Source of the DNA: an uncultured Ignavibacteria bacterium
GTDB lineage: Bacteria > Zixibacteria > MSB-5A5 > SM1-73
Length of the DNA: 64,000 nt
Direction of reading: 5' to 3'
Assembly (NCBI GenBank): GCA_964348415.1
Contig: CAYGCR010000009.1
Coordinates: 649 to 64,648 of the forward strand
A program made the position numbers and the translations under genes. This document shows, piece by piece, positions 6,277-20,068 of the stretch (positions are counted from its first letter, which is position 1; each line of letters starts with the position of its first letter). Under the pieces are notes generated by a model, which searched no databases, was not told the DNA's origin, and worked only from the letters and a program-made list of their open reading frames with translations.

Positions 6277-7665
6277 ATGATCCTGTGCGTGGACTTTGCA
6301 GGTCGAAAAGTCAACATAATGTGCTTGGAGAACAGAAAGGGGCCAGCCAGATCCTCCAAAGGCGGACGGAACCCCGAACTTCGGGTGACGGAATCGCTTG
6401 AACTTAACGTTTCCGATGCCCCAGACTATCTCCGAAGCAAATCCGGAATGATCGAGAGCACAAGGGTCTCGGCACCTTTAGAAAAAACGTTCCACAAGAT
6501 TCTCACTCTGCCCGATTTGAAGCCAAAGATGCTCAAATCGGCCGTCGAAGCGGAGGTGACAAAGGCCTTCGGAAACGAGTATCAATTTCGCTACCAAAAC
6601 CTTGGGGAGGTGCTCGGTCCAGGCAACCAGGTAAACAGAAAGATAATGGCCGCGGGAACGAACAAGGAGACCCTGGAAGAACTCTCACAGATTTTTTCCC
6701 GATCGCCAGTCAGACCCAGAATGTATACAACCTATCCTACCGCCGTGCGGGCGCTACTGAGGAAGCTGGGAATCCTGGGCGAAGAGCCCATAGCCTTTAT
6801 GGAGCTCAGTCGTCCGACAAACCGGATCGTCATCTTCAAAGGGAATGAGGTGCGACTAACCCGAGAGGTCAGCTCAGCGGAAGACGCTAAGGACCCTGGC
6901 CGCTCGGGCCTGGCAAAGGACGTTTTCCGGACCGTTCTTTTCTATAACGAGACCTACCCGGACGAGAGAGTGGGCAAACTTGTATTTGCGGGAAACTCCA
7001 ACACCTCGGAGATGCGGCACAGTTTAAGCCAGAAGATCGGAGCAGAGCTTATTCCCTTTGTGCCTGAGACCCTTCTCTGGGGAAGCGAACAGATGCACCA
7101 CCTCCATCCGGGATGTCTGGGGTTGGCTCTGCTGAACTCTGGTTCGCGCAGCTTTGGGTTCGTGCCCATCTCGGTGCAGGAAAAAAACAAGCTCAGAAAG
7201 ATATTGGTCTTATCCTCCTCCGTGTGCCTTGCCGTTCTTCTGACATTTGCCGTGATCATCTCTCGATTCTCTTTCGATCTGAGCAACCTGAATGCTTTTC
7301 ATGGGGGGATAAAGGGCGAAATCAAGATGAAAGAGGACAGGTTAAAGGAGATGCCACTGGAATTTATTGACCAAACCATAGAAAGCTCTCAGCCGCCCTG
7401 GTCTGACATTCTCCTGGAAGTGGCAGCGGTGGTGCCAGAGGGAGTGGCTCTTAAGACCTTCACCCTGAAAAACGCAAAAAGAATATGGCGAGGGGAAATC
7501 ACCGCCGTCGCAAATGGATCAGACGAGATTAACTCGCTGCTCCAAGTAGAAGAGACGCAAAATAATTTCGTGAAGTCACCCTTATTCAAAGGGGTTAGGT
7601 TGACCAACAGAGAATTACAGGGCAAGCAAGCCTCATTTAAGATAACCTATCAGTTGGATATCTAA
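6277..7665 (+). CDS. PilM-like actin-fold domain fused to a PilN-like TM/coiled-coil domain (MshI-like)
   Basis: N-terminal about 300 aa resemble PilM (ILCVDFAGRKVNIMCLE ... TLPDLKPKMLKSAVEAEVTKAFGNEYQFRYQNLGE). Single TM ILVLSSSVCLAVLLTFAVII, then a periplasmic domain. This matches the MshI architecture. Confidence 0.55.
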   Translation: MILCVDFAGRKVNIMCLENRKGPARSSKGGRNPELRVTESLELNVSDAPDYLRSKSGMIESTRVSAPLEKTFHKILTLPDLKPKMLKSAVEAEVTKAFGNEYQFRYQNLGEVLGPGNQVNRKIMAAGTNKETLEELSQIFSRSPVRPRMYTTYPTAVRALLRKLGILGEEPIAFMELSRPTNRIVIFKGNEVRLTREVSSAEDAKDPGRSGLAKDVFRTVLFYNETYPDERVGKLVFAGNSNTSEMRHSLSQKIGAELIPFVPETLLWGSEQMHHLHPGCLGLALLNSGSRSFGFVPISVQEKNKLRKILVLSSSVCLAVLLTFAVIISRFSFDLSNLNAFHGGIKGEIKMKEDRLKEMPLEFIDQTIESSQPPWSDILLEVAAVVPEGVALKTFTLKNAKRIWRGEITAVANGSDEINSLLQVEETQNNFVKSPLFKGVRLTNRELQGKQASFKITYQLDI

Positions 7666-7666
7666 G

Positions 7667-8203
7667 ATGGGCAGAGAAAAGATCATCATCATCGGTTTCG
7701 GTTGTCTGATTTTCTTGATTGCGTTCTTTGGGCTAAAAAGAATCAAATCACTTAACCGGCAGATCAGAGAACAGAAGGAAAACGTGGCCAAATCAAGCCA
7801 GCGGTTGGATTACGTCAAAAACCTGGGCGAGTCCTTGGAATTGAGAAGGATGAGCGGCAAGGTACTGTTCGAAATTCCTCGAGCACAGGATCCTATTGCA
7901 AACAAAATTCTGATGGAAAAGTTCATCAAGTCTCTCTTGTCGCGATTGGGGCTCGAGGCCGAGGTGAAAATCGAGAATGAACGCAAAAGCAGGGATTTCC
8001 CCGATGTGATCACGGTAAACGAGGTGCCTTTGAAGATCGGCATAAAGAATTACTCCTCCTATCACCAAGTGATAAAGATGTTAAAGGAATTCGGGAATTT
8101 GCCCTTTGTGGTGGAAATACTGACCATCGGGGGCACGGATGTGGCTGTCCCTGGTAATTTGAGGGTTCAGCTCAAATACTATGTCTTGCCCAGAGGCTCC
8201 TAA
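7667..8203 (+). CDS. PilO/MshJ-like pilus assembly protein (TM + coiled coil)
   Basis: N-terminal TM IIIIGFGCLIFLIAFFGL followed by a coiled-coil-rich periplasmic region. Position matches MshJ/PilO. Confidence 0.5.
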   Translation: MGREKIIIIGFGCLIFLIAFFGLKRIKSLNRQIREQKENVAKSSQRLDYVKNLGESLELRRMSGKVLFEIPRAQDPIANKILMEKFIKSLLSRLGLEAEVKIENERKSRDFPDVITVNEVPLKIGIKNYSSYHQVIKMLKEFGNLPFVVEILTIGGTDVAVPGNLRVQLKYYVLPRGS

Positions 8204-8204
8204 A

Positions 8205-8876
8205 ATGGAATTTCTTCAAAGCCCCAAATCCAAGAAGCTGGTCCTCCTGGGGGCGGGACTGGTGGTGGTGATTCTGGTCGGATTCTTCCTTTTGAAGTTC
8301 ATGACCTCAGGAGGAGCCGATGTGGTCCCGGAGAAACCCCGGTCCACCCAGCGGAGCGTAAAGAAGATCTCTAAACCTAAAGCGGAGGAGCCGAAGAAGT
8401 CTCCCCTTTATGAGGCTATGAAAGCCCTTAAGGATCCGTTCCGGGCTGAGGACCCCAGAGCTGCAGAATTGCAGGATAAGCTCAGCCTGACTCAAAAAGA
8501 AGTGGAATACTTAAGGGCAATCTTGGAGGAAAAAAAACTCCGGCACGAGATAAAGGTAATAGAGAGGTCCATAGCCGAAGCTGACCGGGCAAGCTCACCC
8601 TGCGAACAGGCAGCCGCGTCATCCTCCCAAGCAGGAAAAGCAGAGGCCAGCTCCAAAAAGCAACGGGTGCTGGTCAAGGCAATACTGATCACTGATGAAG
8701 AGAAAAGTGCTCTGTTGGTCTCCGGGAGCAAGAAGACTTGGGTTCACGAAGGAGAGAATTTCGACGGTTGGGACATAAAAGAGATCAGAAGGGAAAGTGT
8801 CGTCCTCTCCAAGGAGGGGAAGACAATCGTTTTCTTTTATGATCGTCCCGGCATTTTTCGGGAAGGAGAATCATGA
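8205..8876 (+). CDS. PilP/MshK-like pilus assembly protein
   Basis: TM LVLLGAGLVVVILVGFFLL, low-complexity linker, C-terminal beta domain VLVKAILITDEEKSALLVSGSKKTWVHEGENFDGWDIKEI typical of PilP. Start taken at ATG 8205, just after the upstream stop. Confidence 0.5.
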   Translation: MEFLQSPKSKKLVLLGAGLVVVILVGFFLLKFMTSGGADVVPEKPRSTQRSVKKISKPKAEEPKKSPLYEAMKALKDPFRAEDPRAAELQDKLSLTQKEVEYLRAILEEKKLRHEIKVIERSIAEADRASSPCEQAAASSSQAGKAEASSKKQRVLVKAILITDEEKSALLVSGSKKTWVHEGENFDGWDIKEIRRESVVLSKEGKTIVFFYDRPGIFREGES

Positions 8877-10342
8877 GAAGGTTCGGTTCCACCAGGGGGG
8901 TGCTTGCACTGCTTTCTGTATTGCTTTTTCTTTGCGGCTGCGCGTCAAATCTATCCCAGCAGGACGTGACCAAGGCCATATCGCAGACCGAAGAGGACCA
9001 CGACACTCCGCCGCCGCTGCCTCCCGAGTTAGGCCTGTCTCCCCTGCTCGATCTTCCGCCGGAGAAGGAAAAACTCTTTTCCTTCTCCGCCATAGAGGTC
9101 GCTCTGGAGGATGTGCTGCTTCCTTTATCAAAAGAGGCCGGGCTTAATATCATGTGGGATAAGGATGTTGATCCAAAGGCCCGCCTCAGCGTGAGTTTCG
9201 AAGATCTGACGCTGCTGGAAGCTTTAGAAGCCATATTTGCCCGGACCGAATACATGTATTGCATAAACAGTCCTACACTTCAGGTCAAACTTGTAGATAC
9301 CCGCACGTTTGAGTTAGGGCATGTTCCGACTAAGACCCAATCTCGGATGCAGGTGGGAGGGGACGTGCTGGGATCCATTCCCAATGTGGGAGGGGTGAGC
9401 GGTCAGTTCCAAATCACCGGGTCGACCGACGATGAGGCGCTTGATCTCTGGAAGCAGGTGAAGGAAGGGCTGGAGAACATAGTCTCACCAGAAGGGAAAT
9501 TCTTTGTAAACAAGCTTGCCGGAATGGTGACGGTGACCGACCGAAAGAGAAACCTTAAGCTGGCAGAAGAGTTTATCCAAAAGTTGAGAGCTACTTTGGA
9601 AAGACAGGTGCTGATTGAAGCCGAGGTAGTTGAAGTCACTCTGGAGCAAGCCCAAAGTTGGGGGGTGGATTGGTCGGCGATTCACTCCTTCTTGGTGGAT
9701 AACAAGACCATAGAACTGACAGGTACTCAGACGTTAGGCCTGCCTGGCTCCGTGGTAGAATTGACCGCCTCCCGGCATGATGCTGCCGTTATTCTGGACA
9801 TCCTGGGTCAGTTCGGTGAGGTTCACGTGCTGTCCAAACCCAGAATCAACGTGATGAACGGTCAGACTGCAATGATCAACGTGGGGCGGGTGATAAGCTA
9901 CTGGGAGTTGACCGGACTTTCCGCCGGAGCAGAGGTGGGGCAGCCAATTGTCTTTCCCGAGCAGAAGACGGTGCTTCTGGGCCTGACCATGGGCGTGACC
10001 CCTTATATCTCAGCAGACGGTTACGTTACCCTGCAGGTGGTTCCAATTGTGAGCGATGCCAGCACCTTCTCCGAGTTTCAATTTGAGAGTCAAATGCTCA
10101 AAGCTCCCAACATAGACATCCGCGAGACCAGCACTCAGGTGCGGATAAAAAATGGCGAGACCGTGGTAATCGGCGGTCTTATCACCTCCAGGAAAACGGA
10201 CACAGAACACAAAGTGCCCTTGCTGGGCGATCTCCCCCTGTTGGGCTACTTCTTTAAGCGAAAGGAAAAGACCGAGCAAAGAGCAGAGCTGGTGATCCTT
10301 CTAACTCCCCGAATTGCACGGATGGACAGAGAGGAAGGCTGA
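8873..10342 (+). CDS. type IV pilus / type II secretion secretin (PilQ/MshL/GspD family), lipoprotein
   Basis: Lipobox LLFLCGCASN. Secretin domain VLSKPRINVMNGQTAMINVG ... and C-terminal signature VPLLGDLPLLGYFFKRKEKTEQRAELVILLTPRI. Confidence 0.85.
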   Translation: MRRFGSTRGVLALLSVLLFLCGCASNLSQQDVTKAISQTEEDHDTPPPLPPELGLSPLLDLPPEKEKLFSFSAIEVALEDVLLPLSKEAGLNIMWDKDVDPKARLSVSFEDLTLLEALEAIFARTEYMYCINSPTLQVKLVDTRTFELGHVPTKTQSRMQVGGDVLGSIPNVGGVSGQFQITGSTDDEALDLWKQVKEGLENIVSPEGKFFVNKLAGMVTVTDRKRNLKLAEEFIQKLRATLERQVLIEAEVVEVTLEQAQSWGVDWSAIHSFLVDNKTIELTGTQTLGLPGSVVELTASRHDAAVILDILGQFGEVHVLSKPRINVMNGQTAMINVGRVISYWELTGLSAGAEVGQPIVFPEQKTVLLGLTMGVTPYISADGYVTLQVVPIVSDASTFSEFQFESQMLKAPNIDIRETSTQVRIKNGETVVIGGLITSRKTDTEHKVPLLGDLPLLGYFFKRKEKTEQRAELVILLTPRIARMDREEG

Positions 10343-10343
10343 A

Positions 10344-11312
10344 ATGAGATTGATATTCAAGTCCTCCAGAGACAAAGACGACGTGATTCAATTGCCTTCC
10401 GACCGCAGAGTGGTGTCTTCATTCCCGGACCGGGAAGGAAGGCGGTCTCTTTTGCGGGTTGACCTTCCGGACTCCTATAAGGACTTCTTCAAGTTCAAAG
10501 AATCGCCCTTCTGCATTACGCCTGACCCGAAGTTCTTCTTCTTTTCCCGTTCGGCATCTGAAGGGTTAAACCATCTGCGTTATGGCATCTACGAGGGGTT
10601 GGGGTTCACCATGATAACCGGGGAGCCCGGAACGGGCAAGACCGTCCTTTCGCGATACTTCTCCAGCAAGGCAGGAGACGATTTGCAGATAACGCGAATA
10701 TCCGATCCCCATCTGTCCAACAAAGAGCTTCGGCTGGCAGTTCTCGAAAACCTCGGTGGATCAAGATACCTGCAGGAGGATCTGAGTGAAAGACAATTGA
10801 CCCGACTGCTTCACGACCTTCTTATCTGGGCCAACCGCCAGTCAAAGAGGGTAGTCATATTCTTGGACGAGGCCCAGGGGCTGGGCTTCGAGTTGTTAGA
10901 GGGCCTAAGGCTTCTTTCCAATCTGGAAACGGAGAGCAAGAAACTGACTCAGATTGTTCTTTTCGGTCAGACCGAGTTAGAGGAGATGCTGCGGGAGAAA
11001 AGACTGAGACAGCTTGATCAGCGTATCCTGGTAAGGTATCGTCTGCTTCCGCTGGAGCCAGATGAGATCCAGCCTTATATCCAACATCAACTTGCCGTAG
11101 CCAAGGCGGACAGGTACGTGGAGTTTGCCGACGAAGCAGTCACCAAAATCTACCAGATCTCCAGAGGATTGCCCCGGATGGTGAATGTTCTTTGCGAGCG
11201 TGCCATGATGTCAACCTTCGTTCAGAATAGCAGGAAGATCACGGTACAGAGTGTATTGGAGGGTTGGGAAAGTTTGAATGGGATAGGGATACTGGAAGCA
11301 AGAAATTTTTAA
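10344..11312 (+). CDS. ExeA/GspA/MshM-like AAA+ ATPase
   Basis: Walker A ITGEPGTGKTVLSRYF and Walker B VIFLDEAQ (AAA_22/ExeA family). ATG 10344 with RBS gaggaagg. Adjacent to the secretin as in msh/exeAB systems. Confidence 0.7.
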   Translation: MRLIFKSSRDKDDVIQLPSDRRVVSSFPDREGRRSLLRVDLPDSYKDFFKFKESPFCITPDPKFFFFSRSASEGLNHLRYGIYEGLGFTMITGEPGTGKTVLSRYFSSKAGDDLQITRISDPHLSNKELRLAVLENLGGSRYLQEDLSERQLTRLLHDLLIWANRQSKRVVIFLDEAQGLGFELLEGLRLLSNLETESKKLTQIVLFGQTELEEMLREKRLRQLDQRILVRYRLLPLEPDEIQPYIQHQLAVAKADRYVEFADEAVTKIYQISRGLPRMVNVLCERAMMSTFVQNSRKITVQSVLEGWESLNGIGILEARNF

Positions 11313-18718: not shown

Positions 18719-18843
18719 ACCATCTAATTCCTGTTCTGTCGGATCTCGCCCGCTCTGGCGGGCGTGACCCAACAGCCGATTAATTCCGAGTCAGGTCACT
18801 CTTGCGGCAAGACATAAGCAAGACCTGAAACAACCTCCGTATC

Positions 18844-18950
18844 GTCATCGCGGGAAGTCCCGTCAGAGGCGGGACGAGGGGGCGATCTGTGTCCAAATGA
18901 ACGATAGGCTGTCAAGGGATTGCCACGCTCGCTGCGGGCTGGTCTTACGC
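18844..18950 (+). repeat. about 105-bp repeat element, copy A (upstream of flavin reductase gene), contains conserved hairpin
   Basis: gtcatcgcgggaagtcccgtcagaggcgggacgagggggcgatctg... aligns at about 75-80% identity with 19690-19795. Hairpin gtcccg/cgggac. Confidence 0.6.
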
Positions 18951-19092
18951 GTTTTTTCGAGTCTTGTCCTACGCGTGTGATCTAACATAGTGGTCCATCA
19001 CTATTCCCAGAAAATACTCTGCCCCGTGCAACCGAGCTTTGCTCTTCTCCGTTACTTAACTTAGAGACATCCAACCTCTAAAAGGAGGAATA

Positions 19093-19617
19093 ATGAAACA
19101 GGAATTCAAGGAAAATCTGTTGAGTCCGCTGCCAGTGGTTTTGGTTGGAGCGATGGTGAACGGCCGTCCAAACTACCTTGTGATCGGATACATCTGTCCT
19201 TTTAACTTCGGAAAACATATTTTCTTCAGCTTGTACAAGAAGCGGTATACAAGTCTTGGAATTCATGAGAGCAAGACCTTCAGCGTAAACATCCCTTCGG
19301 TGGATCTGTTGGCTGAAACGAACATCTGTGGAAGCAAGTCCGGTCGAGATGTCGACAAGGCAAAGCTCTTCGACAACTTTCACGGCGAGCTGAAAACCGC
19401 ACCGATGATTCGCCAATGTCCGATAAACATCGAGTGTGAAGTTGCCCAGATCGTCGACTATGATCCCAACGAAGGGATAATTGGCAGAGTAGTCAAATCA
19501 TATGCAAACCCGGAATGCTTCACAGATGGCAAGCTGGACTGGAGGAAAGTTCATCCCATTATCTGGGCTACCGGCGGTGATTTCAACTACTACCGACTTG
19601 GGGAACGGATCAGCTAG
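19093..19617 (+). CDS. flavin reductase-like FMN-binding split-barrel protein
   Basis: LLSPLPVVLVGAMVNGRPNYLVIGYICPFNF... typical of the Flavin_Reduct (PF01613) family. RBS aaaggagg. Confidence 0.7.
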   Translation: MKQEFKENLLSPLPVVLVGAMVNGRPNYLVIGYICPFNFGKHIFFSLYKKRYTSLGIHESKTFSVNIPSVDLLAETNICGSKSGRDVDKAKLFDNFHGELKTAPMIRQCPINIECEVAQIVDYDPNEGIIGRVVKSYANPECFTDGKLDWRKVHPIIWATGGDFNYYRLGERIS

Positions 19618-19689
19618 GAGGAGTCGGAGCGTAGGTCTTGAGTTCTGTCGGGTCACACTCACCGCAAGGCCCGACACAAACTTCAAATG

Positions 19690-19795
19690 GTCATCGCGAG
19701 GAGCCCCGGCAGAGGCGGGGCTACCCAGCGATCTGCTTCTAAGTAAGCGATTGCTTGGCGAGAGATTGCCGCGCTCCCTGCGGTCGCTCGCAATG
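19690..19795 (+). repeat. about 105-bp repeat element, copy B (downstream of flavin reductase gene)
   Basis: gtcatcgcgaggagccccggcagaggcggggctacccagcgatctg... Hairpin agcccc/ggggct shows compensatory changes relative to copy A. Confidence 0.6.
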
Positions 19796-19981
19796 ACTGC
19801 CTTGCGCATTGGCTTCTCCTCAACTTTTTTCTTGCATTTACCCGTCAAGGTTCGATATTAGTATTGGGCCGCTGGGCGGCCTGTCGACCGTCCACTGTCC
19901 ACCACTAAGGCATCGCGATGGTGGTTGGAGTCGGCGCTGAGTGGTGTTAGCTGCGGACAGTCGACGGTGGACGCATTCTGC

Positions 19982-20068
19982 GGAGGGTTAGTCCTAACTG
20001 GTAAGGCAGTGGACTTGAAATCCACCGGCCGCAAGGCCTTGCGGGTTCGAATCCTGCACCCTCCGCCA
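19982..20068 (+). tRNA. tRNA-Ser (anticodon TGA), long variable arm, CCA encoded
   Basis: GGAGGGT acceptor, anticodon stem-loop GTGGA-CTTGAAA-TCCAC, variable arm CGGCCGCAAGGCCTTGCG, T-arm GCGGGTTCGAATCCTGC, ACCCTCC-G-CCA. Confidence 0.85.

Follow-up and report, generated by a model that had tools for sequence, protein, structure and literature searches.

Repeats beside a flavin reductase gene in an uncultured Zixibacteria bacterium are probable copies of a palindromic DNA element whose family is linked to a small GIY-YIG nuclease gene

We analyzed a 64,000-nt stretch of contig CAYGCR010000009.1 from an uncultured Zixibacteria bacterium (hereafter, the window), in which two imperfect direct repeats, copy A and copy B, flank a 174-aa flavin reductase gene near a tRNA-Ser gene. 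[quoted passage not shown] The module from which they are built, a hairpin of ~45 nt, belongs to a cross-phylum, mostly intergenic family with strong covariation of its pairs, and a stand-alone GIY-YIG (UPF0213) gene encoding ~95 aa is tightly linked to it, usually between the two arms of an element and sometimes between whole elements. For the locus itself the result is deflationary, as this is an ordinary palindromic repeat, selfish or neutral DNA, and the "compensatory" change in its stem is normal behavior for a DNA palindrome and no evidence for an RNA motif. The part worth following is the link of the family to a minimal GIY-YIG nuclease.

The module is a widespread intergenic hairpin

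Each element is an inverted, head-out pair of modules, the right arm being the same module on the opposite strand. The module opens with the head (T/C)GTCAT(T/C)GCGAG and closes with the tail ...ATC-TC; it has an outer stem of 5 bp (AT(T/C)GC / GC(A/G)AT), an internal loop with GAG opposite G(A/T/C)(A/G), and a hypervariable insert of 7-45 nt, usually a GC-rich palindromic hairpin with a 3-nt loop of the form GNA. The base that precedes GTC is T in 66% and C in 26% of 607 module instances; copy A reads C-GTCAT and copy B G-GTCAT, and head variants include GTCTTTGCGAG, GTCACTGCGAG, and GTCGTTGCGAG. Modules stand alone, in head-out inverted pairs, or in tandem arrays. Regular tandem arrays have a period of 41 nt in L034 (692-842), 238 nt in L022 (442-943), and ~125 nt in Halomonas garicola (L098, 2441-3148).

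A degenerate two-arm pattern matched 50 loci in IMG/VR contigs, all with the same architecture, and the elements on phage contigs were placed between phage structural genes. For GTDB species genomes the pattern was narrower than the viral one, its left arm being fixed to the C..G variant as in the window, and it matched at least 119 loci in at least 18 phyla, all bacterial among the matches listed. These matches include Zixibacteria (four other genomes), Chloroflexota, Bacillota, Pseudomonadota, Desulfobacterota, Bacteroidota, Ignavibacteriales, Acidobacteriota, Actinomycetota, Armatimonadota, Nitrospirota, Planctomycetota, Spirochaetota, Marinimicrobia, and phyla of the candidate phyla radiation (CPR), and among the loci are those of the cultured Halomonas garicola and Pelotomaculum propionicicum. 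A ~45-nt module whose conservation extends from CPR bacteria as far as Proteobacteria and phages is unusual, given that REPs are as a rule lineage-specific. The elements are mostly intergenic, with 109 (~81%) between genes versus 25 inside crudely called open reading frames (ORFs), while ~17% of random positions are intergenic; they are slightly overrepresented where neighboring genes converge and underrepresented where they diverge. A literature search by sequence (GTCATTGCGAG / CTCGCAATGAC) returned unrelated primer matches only.

A covariance model (R1) built from 41 modules, all of other genomes, recovered three intact arms in the window and nothing else significant: the right arm of copy B (19764-19797, minus strand, 37.3 bits, E 3e-5), its left arm (19690-19733, 29.3 bits, E 1e-3), and the left arm of copy A (18844-18887, 19.4 bits, E 0.075). 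R1 also found the expected arms in Zixibacteria relatives. A first-pass annotation of the window had offered a genome-wide REP family as one explanation of the repeats, and these results support that idea in a broader form, as the family crosses phyla.

Paired bases covary and the hairpins have DNA-type features

The covariation across further copies that the first-pass annotation had called for is present. The sole free position of the outer stem, 6/33, shows almost perfect covariation in two sets that are unbiased by the search patterns, the viral set (T-A 93, C-G 6, mixed 0) and the set selected through the GIY-YIG protein (T-A 144, C-G 6, T-G 2). In 41 modules of the same length, 85.8% of the cells were paired versus 66.4% in shuffles, and 102 cells were changed on both sides versus 36, a value reached by 0 of 500 shuffles. 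Slid controls all fell far below the observed pairing, and all six inner pairs vary on both sides.

Perfect inner stems of at least 5 bp were found in 102 of 351 inserts, versus 11 in shuffled inserts. Loops of 3 nt close 93 of 172 hairpins and are mostly GCA, GAA, or GTA. The sequence GCGNAGC, a known DNA mini-hairpin of extraordinary stability (PMC13037366), is present in 124 of 462 unique modules and its complement in 9, and G-U pairs are scarce (12 of 246 inner-stem cells). From the GNA triloops and GCGNAGC, we infer that the hairpin acts as DNA, either single-stranded or as a cruciform, and not as RNA. The palindrome would then be maintained at the DNA level, and the compensatory look of the stem changes probably reflects correction of quasi-palindromes, through intrastrand templating or gene conversion, and not selection on an RNA fold. 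Preservation of pairing despite sequence change, which had been read as the signature of a selected structure, thus holds at the level of the family and fails as proof of selection on RNA.

Using Rfam 15, we found tRNAs as the only matches in the window and no family on module-rich loci. The best non-tRNA overlap in the window was terC (18833-18880), with 17.7 bits versus a cut-off of 39.9; this and CRISPR-DR28 (18746-18769) were far under their gathering scores and were treated as chance. We also dropped a K-turn-like interpretation of the internal loop, whose 3′ strand has four extra bases.

A minimal GIY-YIG gene is linked to the modules

Clustering of neighboring ORFs around the elements turned up a small GIY-YIG protein (PF01541) of ~95 aa, which among solved structures is closest to the UPF0213 proteins 1zg2 and 1ywl, of unassigned function. 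The recurrent neighbors at the genome loci comprised only housekeeping genes and spurious repeat-spanning ORFs, with no transposase, integrase, or REP-associated tyrosine transposase (RAYT) among them. In the repeat-selected loci, all four GIY-YIG genes lie within 15-40 nt of a module. As an independent test, 80 metagenome loci were picked by protein similarity alone, and 62 of them have a module within 150 bp of the gene (49 upstream, 52 downstream, 39 on both sides). Variant modules, such as GTCTTTGCGAG...CGCAAAGAC and GTCACTGCGAG...GCAGTC, are present at many of the remaining 18.

In the commonest layout, the gene lies 4-60 nt downstream of a "+" module and 0-60 nt upstream of a "-" module, and so occupies the spacer of an element. 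Module density is 6.9 per kb up to 75 bp from the gene and 0.14-0.28 per kb past 600 bp, a 25- to 50-fold enrichment, and the gaps between a "+" module and the following "-" module are bimodal, with 175 below 60 nt, none at 60-149 nt, and 29 at 150-600 nt. The layout recurs in two cultured isolates, each with 14 modules per 20 kb. At one locus (L179), a pair of direct full elements encloses the GIY-YIG gene, which is the arrangement of the flavin reductase gene in the window. The subfamily is large, with at least 7,999 relatives at E below 1e-10. In the literature, as far as it was covered, we found nothing linking GIY-YIG or UPF0213 to REPs, MITEs, other palindromic repeats, or the paired REPs known as REPINs; a 2006 phylogenomics paper on GIY-YIG took the bacterial stand-alone proteins to be Slx1-like genes inherited vertically.

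The two copies in the window

The features of the locus are collected in Table 1. A repeat finder reported one direct-repeat family in the region, at 18818-18937 and 19664-19783, with 73% ungapped identity, and the copies are 77% identical in a MAFFT alignment. A 30-nt degenerate pattern of their shared core matches both copies and nothing else in the 64 kb, where shuffles expect 0. The ~105-bp imperfect direct repeats described in the first-pass annotation are therefore real, and each has a GC hairpin, while their limits needed revision: copy B runs to 19797, and each copy is preceded by a further hairpin, X, with the motif TCTGTCGG(A/G)TC...CC(C/A)(G/A)ACA (18735 and 19644). The repeated unit is thus longer than first described. 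The X hairpin of copy A begins 17 nt past the stop codon of a sigma-54 activator gene. X also precedes the orthologous copies in three syntenic relatives (L051, L052, and L058) and is absent from other Zixibacteria elements, which makes it lineage-specific. The right end that copy A has lost is kept in its orthologues in L051 (...CTCGCAATGAC) and L058 (...CTCGCAGTGAC).

Table 1. Coordinates of the repeat copies, their parts, and neighboring genes in the window
Feature	Position	Strand	Description
Hairpin X of copy A	18735-18778	+	TCTGTCGGATC...CCCAACA around CCCGC-tctg-GCGGG; read from the sequence
Copy A	18844-18939		3′ end missing (~17 nt; alignment gap versus copy B)
Copy A left module	18844-18889	+	Head GTCATCGCGGG, inner hairpin, tail GCGATCTG; pattern match
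Copy A inner hairpin	18857-18875	+	GTCCCG, loop TCAGAGG, CGGGAC; in RNA and DNA folds
Copy A right module, truncated	18918-18939	-	GATTGCCACGCTCGCTGCGGGC; terminal ...GCTCGCAATGAC gone (17-nt 3′ gap versus copy B)
Flavin reductase gene	19093-19617	+	PF01613, 174 aa; resident, outside the element
Hairpin X of copy B	19644-19681	+	TCTGTCGGGTC...CCCGACACAAAC; 27 nt past the flavin reductase stop codon
Copy B	19690-19797		Complete; terminal inverted repeats GTCATCGCGAG...CTCGCAATGAC
Copy B left module	19690-19735	+	GTCATCGCGAG, inner hairpin, GCGATCTG; outer stem variant ATCGC/GCGAT; regular-expression match
Copy B inner hairpin	19702-19722	+	AGCCCCG, loop GCAGAGG, CGGGGCT; in RNA and DNA folds
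Copy B inter-arm spacer	19736-19761	.	Position of the GIY-YIG gene in full-length relatives
Copy B right module	19762-19797	-	On the minus strand, GTCATTGCGAG-CGACCGCAGGGAGCGCG-GCAATCTC
tRNA-Ser(tga)	19982-20068	+	ARAGORN and Rfam; 184 nt 3′ of copy B; neighbor only

With the inner hairpins of the two copies in register, one compensatory pair distinguishes them, T18858-A18874 of copy A being C19704-G19720 in copy B, and copy B alone has an extra closing pair (A19702-T19722). The replacement of the whole stem that had been claimed is thus reduced to a single T-A to C-G change plus one added pair. Folding supported the hairpin for copy B (z of about -2.5 to -2.7 against shuffles, with RNA or DNA parameters and on either strand) and not for copy A, which folds no better than shuffled sequence (z of about -0.5).

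These results bear on the possibility that the repeats are a structured cis-acting RNA, located in the 3′ untranslated region (UTR) of the mRNAs for the sigma-54 activator and the flavin reductase or in the 5′ UTR of the latter, where it would serve as a stabilizer, terminator, or protein-binding site with its pairing under RNA selection. Both copies are in sense and, counting the X hairpin, start 17-27 nt past stop codons; copy B beats shuffles as an RNA fold, the family shows strong covariation, and E. coli REPs are known to affect mRNA stability. However, the fold of copy B is equal on both strands and as DNA, copy A fails against shuffles, there is no U-tract terminator, and, with the chance overlaps set aside, there is no Rfam match at any threshold. 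The modules also lie in both orientations, in inverted pairs and arrays, beside unrelated genes and in phage contigs; their GNA triloops and GCGNAGC are hallmarks of DNA hairpins, G-U pairs are scarce, and L052 has the same genes without copy A. We therefore consider a cis-regulatory RNA, which the first-pass annotation had put forward, improbable.

Two spurious ORFs of 116 and 119 aa (19498-19861, both strands) run over copy B, with peptides containing ...VIASDRRERGNL... and ...LPRSLRSLAMT.... Other genomes also yield repeat-derived peptides, which form clusters and can contaminate protein databases. Repeats of this kind should be masked during annotation, because their translations (...SLRSLAMT..., ...VIASDRRERGNL...) give spurious ORFs.

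The flavin reductase gene is resident in a rearranged locus

The order sigma-54 activator, flavin reductase, tRNA-Ser, flavodoxin, 265-aa ORF, and LysR is kept in four lineages, and the flavin reductases of the syntenic relatives are 88-94% identical to that of the window, which is in turn 100% identical to a protein from a metagenome-assembled genome (MAG) of candidate division Zixibacteria. The interval between copy B and tRNA-Ser is conserved in the relatives, with tRNA orthologues in L051, L052, and L058. The copies themselves vary. In L052, copy A is absent (195-bp spacer), copy B is present, and a RAYT-like gene is inserted after the tRNA. L051 has a complete copy A with an internal insertion as well as copy B, and a gene for a DUF4185 protein is inserted upstream of copy A. 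In L058, copy A has a different inner hairpin, a right-arm remnant follows the gene, a radical-SAM/PqqD cluster is inserted, and the orthologue of copy B stands directly upstream of the conserved block that precedes tRNA-Ser. The inner stems of orthologous copies differ with pairing intact (CCCCG/CGGGG, GCCCCGCC/GGCGGGGC, and CCCTC/GAGGG), and the L052 loop reads as an inversion (CCTCTGG versus GCAGAGG).

Copy B is orthologous in all four relatives and is therefore old, and copy A is variable among them. Because both have the X hairpin and a CAGAGG loop, the data suggest that copy A is a decaying relative of copy B and that the two are linked by local duplication or conversion.

The RAYT-like gene of L052 (7160-7810, between tRNA-Ser and the flavodoxin gene; NF047646, E 1.8e-14, below the curated cut-off) raises the question of whether the elements are REPINs mobilized by a RAYT, as in Pseudomonas and E. 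coli. Their spaced, inverted pairs of short palindromes do have the REPIN layout outlined in PMC3116915. However, this gene is flanked and interrupted by a different hairpin, of the classical type with a GTAG head (GTAGGGACAA(T/C)CC...GGATTGTCCC, with TTGTCCC in the flanking copy, GTAGGGACAA...TTGTCCC), whereas the modules have a YGTC head, with T or C at position -1 in the proportions given above. No RAYT or IS200-like protein recurs next to the elements at the at least 119 genome loci, and the published CGTC-tagged REPs likewise lack a RAYT (PMC3733652). Mobilization by a RAYT is, in our judgment, slightly less probable still than an RNA function.

That the repeats are att-like or attC-like boundaries of a one-gene cassette inserted beside tRNA-Ser, as the first-pass annotation had suggested in proposing scars at an integration hotspot, is very improbable and largely refuted: a single gene does lie between direct repeats with imperfect palindromes close to a tRNA (the tRNA-Ser noted earlier was confirmed), the flavin reductase shares 76-94% identity among Zixibacteria, Asgard archaea, Bathyarchaeota, and Anaerolineae, a pattern suggestive of horizontal transfer, and the locus is prone to rearrangement, as its insertions show, but gene order is kept in four lineages, L052 has the gene without copy A, the syntenic neighborhoods (L051, L052, and L058) have no integrase, in agreement with what was first noted, the repeats lie upstream of the tRNA and outside its 3′ end, neither archaeal nor other Zixibacteria copies of the gene have the repeats, and the same repeats flank unrelated genes elsewhere. 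The conserved gene order and the presence of the gene in L052 without copy A indicate that the flavin reductase is a resident gene and that the repeats are not the ends of an inserted cassette.

Close relatives of the flavin reductase (76-94% identity) are found in Zixibacteria, Promethearchaeota, Hodarchaeota, Lokiarchaeota, Bathyarchaeota, Theionarchaea, and Anaerolineae MAGs, a spread that looks like recent cross-domain transfer, or partly mis-binning. In Promethearchaeota, where it adjoins nitroreductase genes, and in another Zixibacteria genome the gene has a different context and no modules; we rejected the idea that the repeats moved into archaea with the gene, as the archaeal loci lack modules. 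In a by-eye comparison, the stop codon TAG of the window gene (19615-19617) is CAG in relatives, making the protein 8 codons shorter (174 versus 182 aa), and the reading frame still contains the ancestral TGA (19639-19641).

The insertions in the relatives differ in content. In L058, a cluster of PqqD, radical-SAM, ScmC-like, and B12-radical-SAM genes (7269-11088), similar to those for ribosomally synthesized and post-translationally modified peptides, lies between flavin reductase and the tRNA-Ser region, with the remnant right arm on one side and a full repeat copy on the other, and the repeat may mark a recombination hotspot there. The gene in L051 (2546-3529; DUF4185/DUF5005), between the sigma-54 activator and copy A, is present in that relative only.

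Directly 3′ of copy B, a block with the sequence TTCTTGCATTT(A/G)CC...TTCGATATTAGTATTGGGCCGC (19832-19859) is near-invariant in L051, L052, and L058 and resembles a -35/-10 pair (TTGCAT, 16 nt, GATATT) for tRNA-Ser; a promoter scan made no call. Between this block and tRNA-Ser (19880-19975) are inverted and repeated motifs of the type GTCGAC(C/G)GT(C/G)(C/G)AC / GACGGCGGAC, a stretch that is expanded about three-fold in L052 (6790-7070). The tRNA-Ser leader of L052 (6965-6995) and the copy B spacer of L058 (11300-11330) both contain the short motif GGACTTGTCCTGAGCGA(A)GTCGAAGGAC; its design is module-like, with TGTC as head, GTCCT/AGGAC as stem, and GAGCGAAG as core, and it may be another branch of the module superfamily.

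Discussion

The family to which the repeats of the flavin reductase locus belong offers a possible mechanism for their spread. The modules would extrude as DNA hairpins or cruciforms, and the GIY-YIG nuclease carried by the long form of the element could recognize or cut these structures. Repair copying from another element, by homing or gene conversion, could then spread the nuclease gene together with ORF-less pairs. The copies in the window would be passive and non-autonomous, because the window encodes no such nuclease. Relatives of the protein, including Slx1, UvrC, and homing enzymes, are hydrolytic and often structure-specific. An effect of the copies on the mRNA 3′ ends of upstream genes is possible.

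Several observations weigh against this interpretation. Movement was not observed and no clean pair of filled and empty alleles was obtained; no target-site duplication is visible in 12 elements, and the empty sites of two phage-borne elements had no matches in viral contigs. The window has just two elements, and a 20-kb stretch from another Zixibacteria genome has none. Module counts were made with a regular expression that fixes most outer-stem bases, and the genome scan forced C..G in one arm. Both window copies lie in sense just after stop codons and might therefore have a role as RNA. As to the nuclease, the GIY-YIG queries came from repeat-selected loci, so that the linkage covers this subfamily and not all UPF0213 proteins, and a nuclease gene that simply homes into repeats already in place would explain it just as well. 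Neither the window nor ~160 kb of sequence from related Zixibacteria yielded a GIY-YIG gene; the nuclease link therefore holds for the family and not for this genome.

We tentatively propose that GTCATTGCGAG-type modules are the ends or homing sites of an undescribed class of selfish element whose sole gene encodes a minimal ~95-aa GIY-YIG (UPF0213/Slx1-like) structure-specific nuclease, and that ORF-less pairs, including those of the window, are its non-autonomous forms; this is possible, and less secure than the assignment of the window copies to a palindromic DNA element. The linkage offers a testable answer to two questions, namely how REPs lacking a RAYT are moved and what the function of UPF0213 proteins is. 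Experiments are feasible, as there are carriers in culture (Rhodohalobacter sp. 614A, Flavobacterium beibuense, Halomonas garicola, and Pelotomaculum propionicicum); the protein has 99 aa in Rhodohalobacter sp. 614A (P0187) and 98 aa in F. beibuense (P0123).

Comparison with known systems

The elements share single features with several known systems. The repeats of the window lie at least 184 nt upstream of the tRNA, have no sequence in common with it, and have no integrase, which sets them apart from tRNA-targeted genomic islands. Like integron attC sites, the modules are imperfect palindromes with conserved ends and a variable, structure-conserving center beside single genes; unlike attC sites and cassettes, they have no RYYYAAC/GTTRRRY cores, no IntI, and no cassette array, and the gene they flank is syntenic and resident.

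The GIY-YIG gene resembles free-standing homing genes such as seg of phage T4 in being a lone intergenic gene, also found in phage contigs (L033/L262), beside its possible target. Seg and I-TevI are proteins of 200-250 aa with DNA-binding domains, whereas the module-linked proteins are a minimal ~95-aa domain of the UPF0213/Slx1-like branch (PDB 1zg2, 1ywl), and their putative target is a multicopy palindrome and not, as for seg, a unique site in a gene. Similarly, the ORF-less forms of 60-110 bp and the long forms of ~380-450 bp, bimodal in size and with the same inverted ends, recall MITEs and their parent insertion sequences (ISs). The terminal inverted repeats (GTCATYGCGAG/CTCGCAATGAC) are a MITE feature, accompanied by no target-site duplication in the 12 elements mentioned above, and, unlike a parent IS, the long form encodes a ~95-aa hydrolytic nuclease. 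To our knowledge, GIY-YIG enzymes have no strand-transfer chemistry, and the long-form protein is therefore not a known transposase.

REPINs and the REPs and bacterial interspersed mosaic elements of E. coli are, like the modules, formed by two inverted short palindromes with a spacer, occur as singletons, dimers, and arrays, and are intergenic. The modules differ from the REPIN/RAYT system in their YGTC instead of GTAG head, in having a GIY-YIG nuclease gene instead of a RAYT (the sole RAYT-like gene, in L052, being flanked by GTAGGGACAA hairpins), and in a sequence that is kept across phyla and not within a genus, with a hypervariable inner stem.

The CGTC-tagged REPs described by Di Nocera et al. 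in 2013 (PMC3733652), which include dRS3 of Neisseria and RPE-4 and RPE-6 of Rickettsia, come closest. They have CGTC (or TGTC/CCTC) unpaired at one end of the palindrome, a 3-nt tail, a continuous stem of 8-9 bp starting with A-T, and a loop of 4-5 nt; they are mostly inverted dimers, and neither a linked tyrosine transposase nor a dedicated enzyme was reported (PMC3733652). In common with them, the modules have an unpaired CGTC/TGTC head next to a stem initiated by A-T and a short unpaired tail, form mostly inverted dimers (the 175 "+-" pairs with a gap below 60 nt), are intergenic in several phyla, and have no tyrosine transposase nearby. They differ in their outer stem of 5 bp (starting A-T, T-A), internal loop, and variable inner stem, in inserts of 7-45 nt with loops mostly of 3 nt, in a far wider range of phyla, and in the linked GIY-YIG gene. 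We call the modules nearest to the CGTC/TGTC-tagged REPs, as a related variant and not a member, because the stem and loop dimensions are different and the comparison was made by description. If the proposed role of the nuclease is true, it would be the missing enzyme of the CGTC/TGTC-tagged REP superfamily and would give UPF0213 proteins a function.

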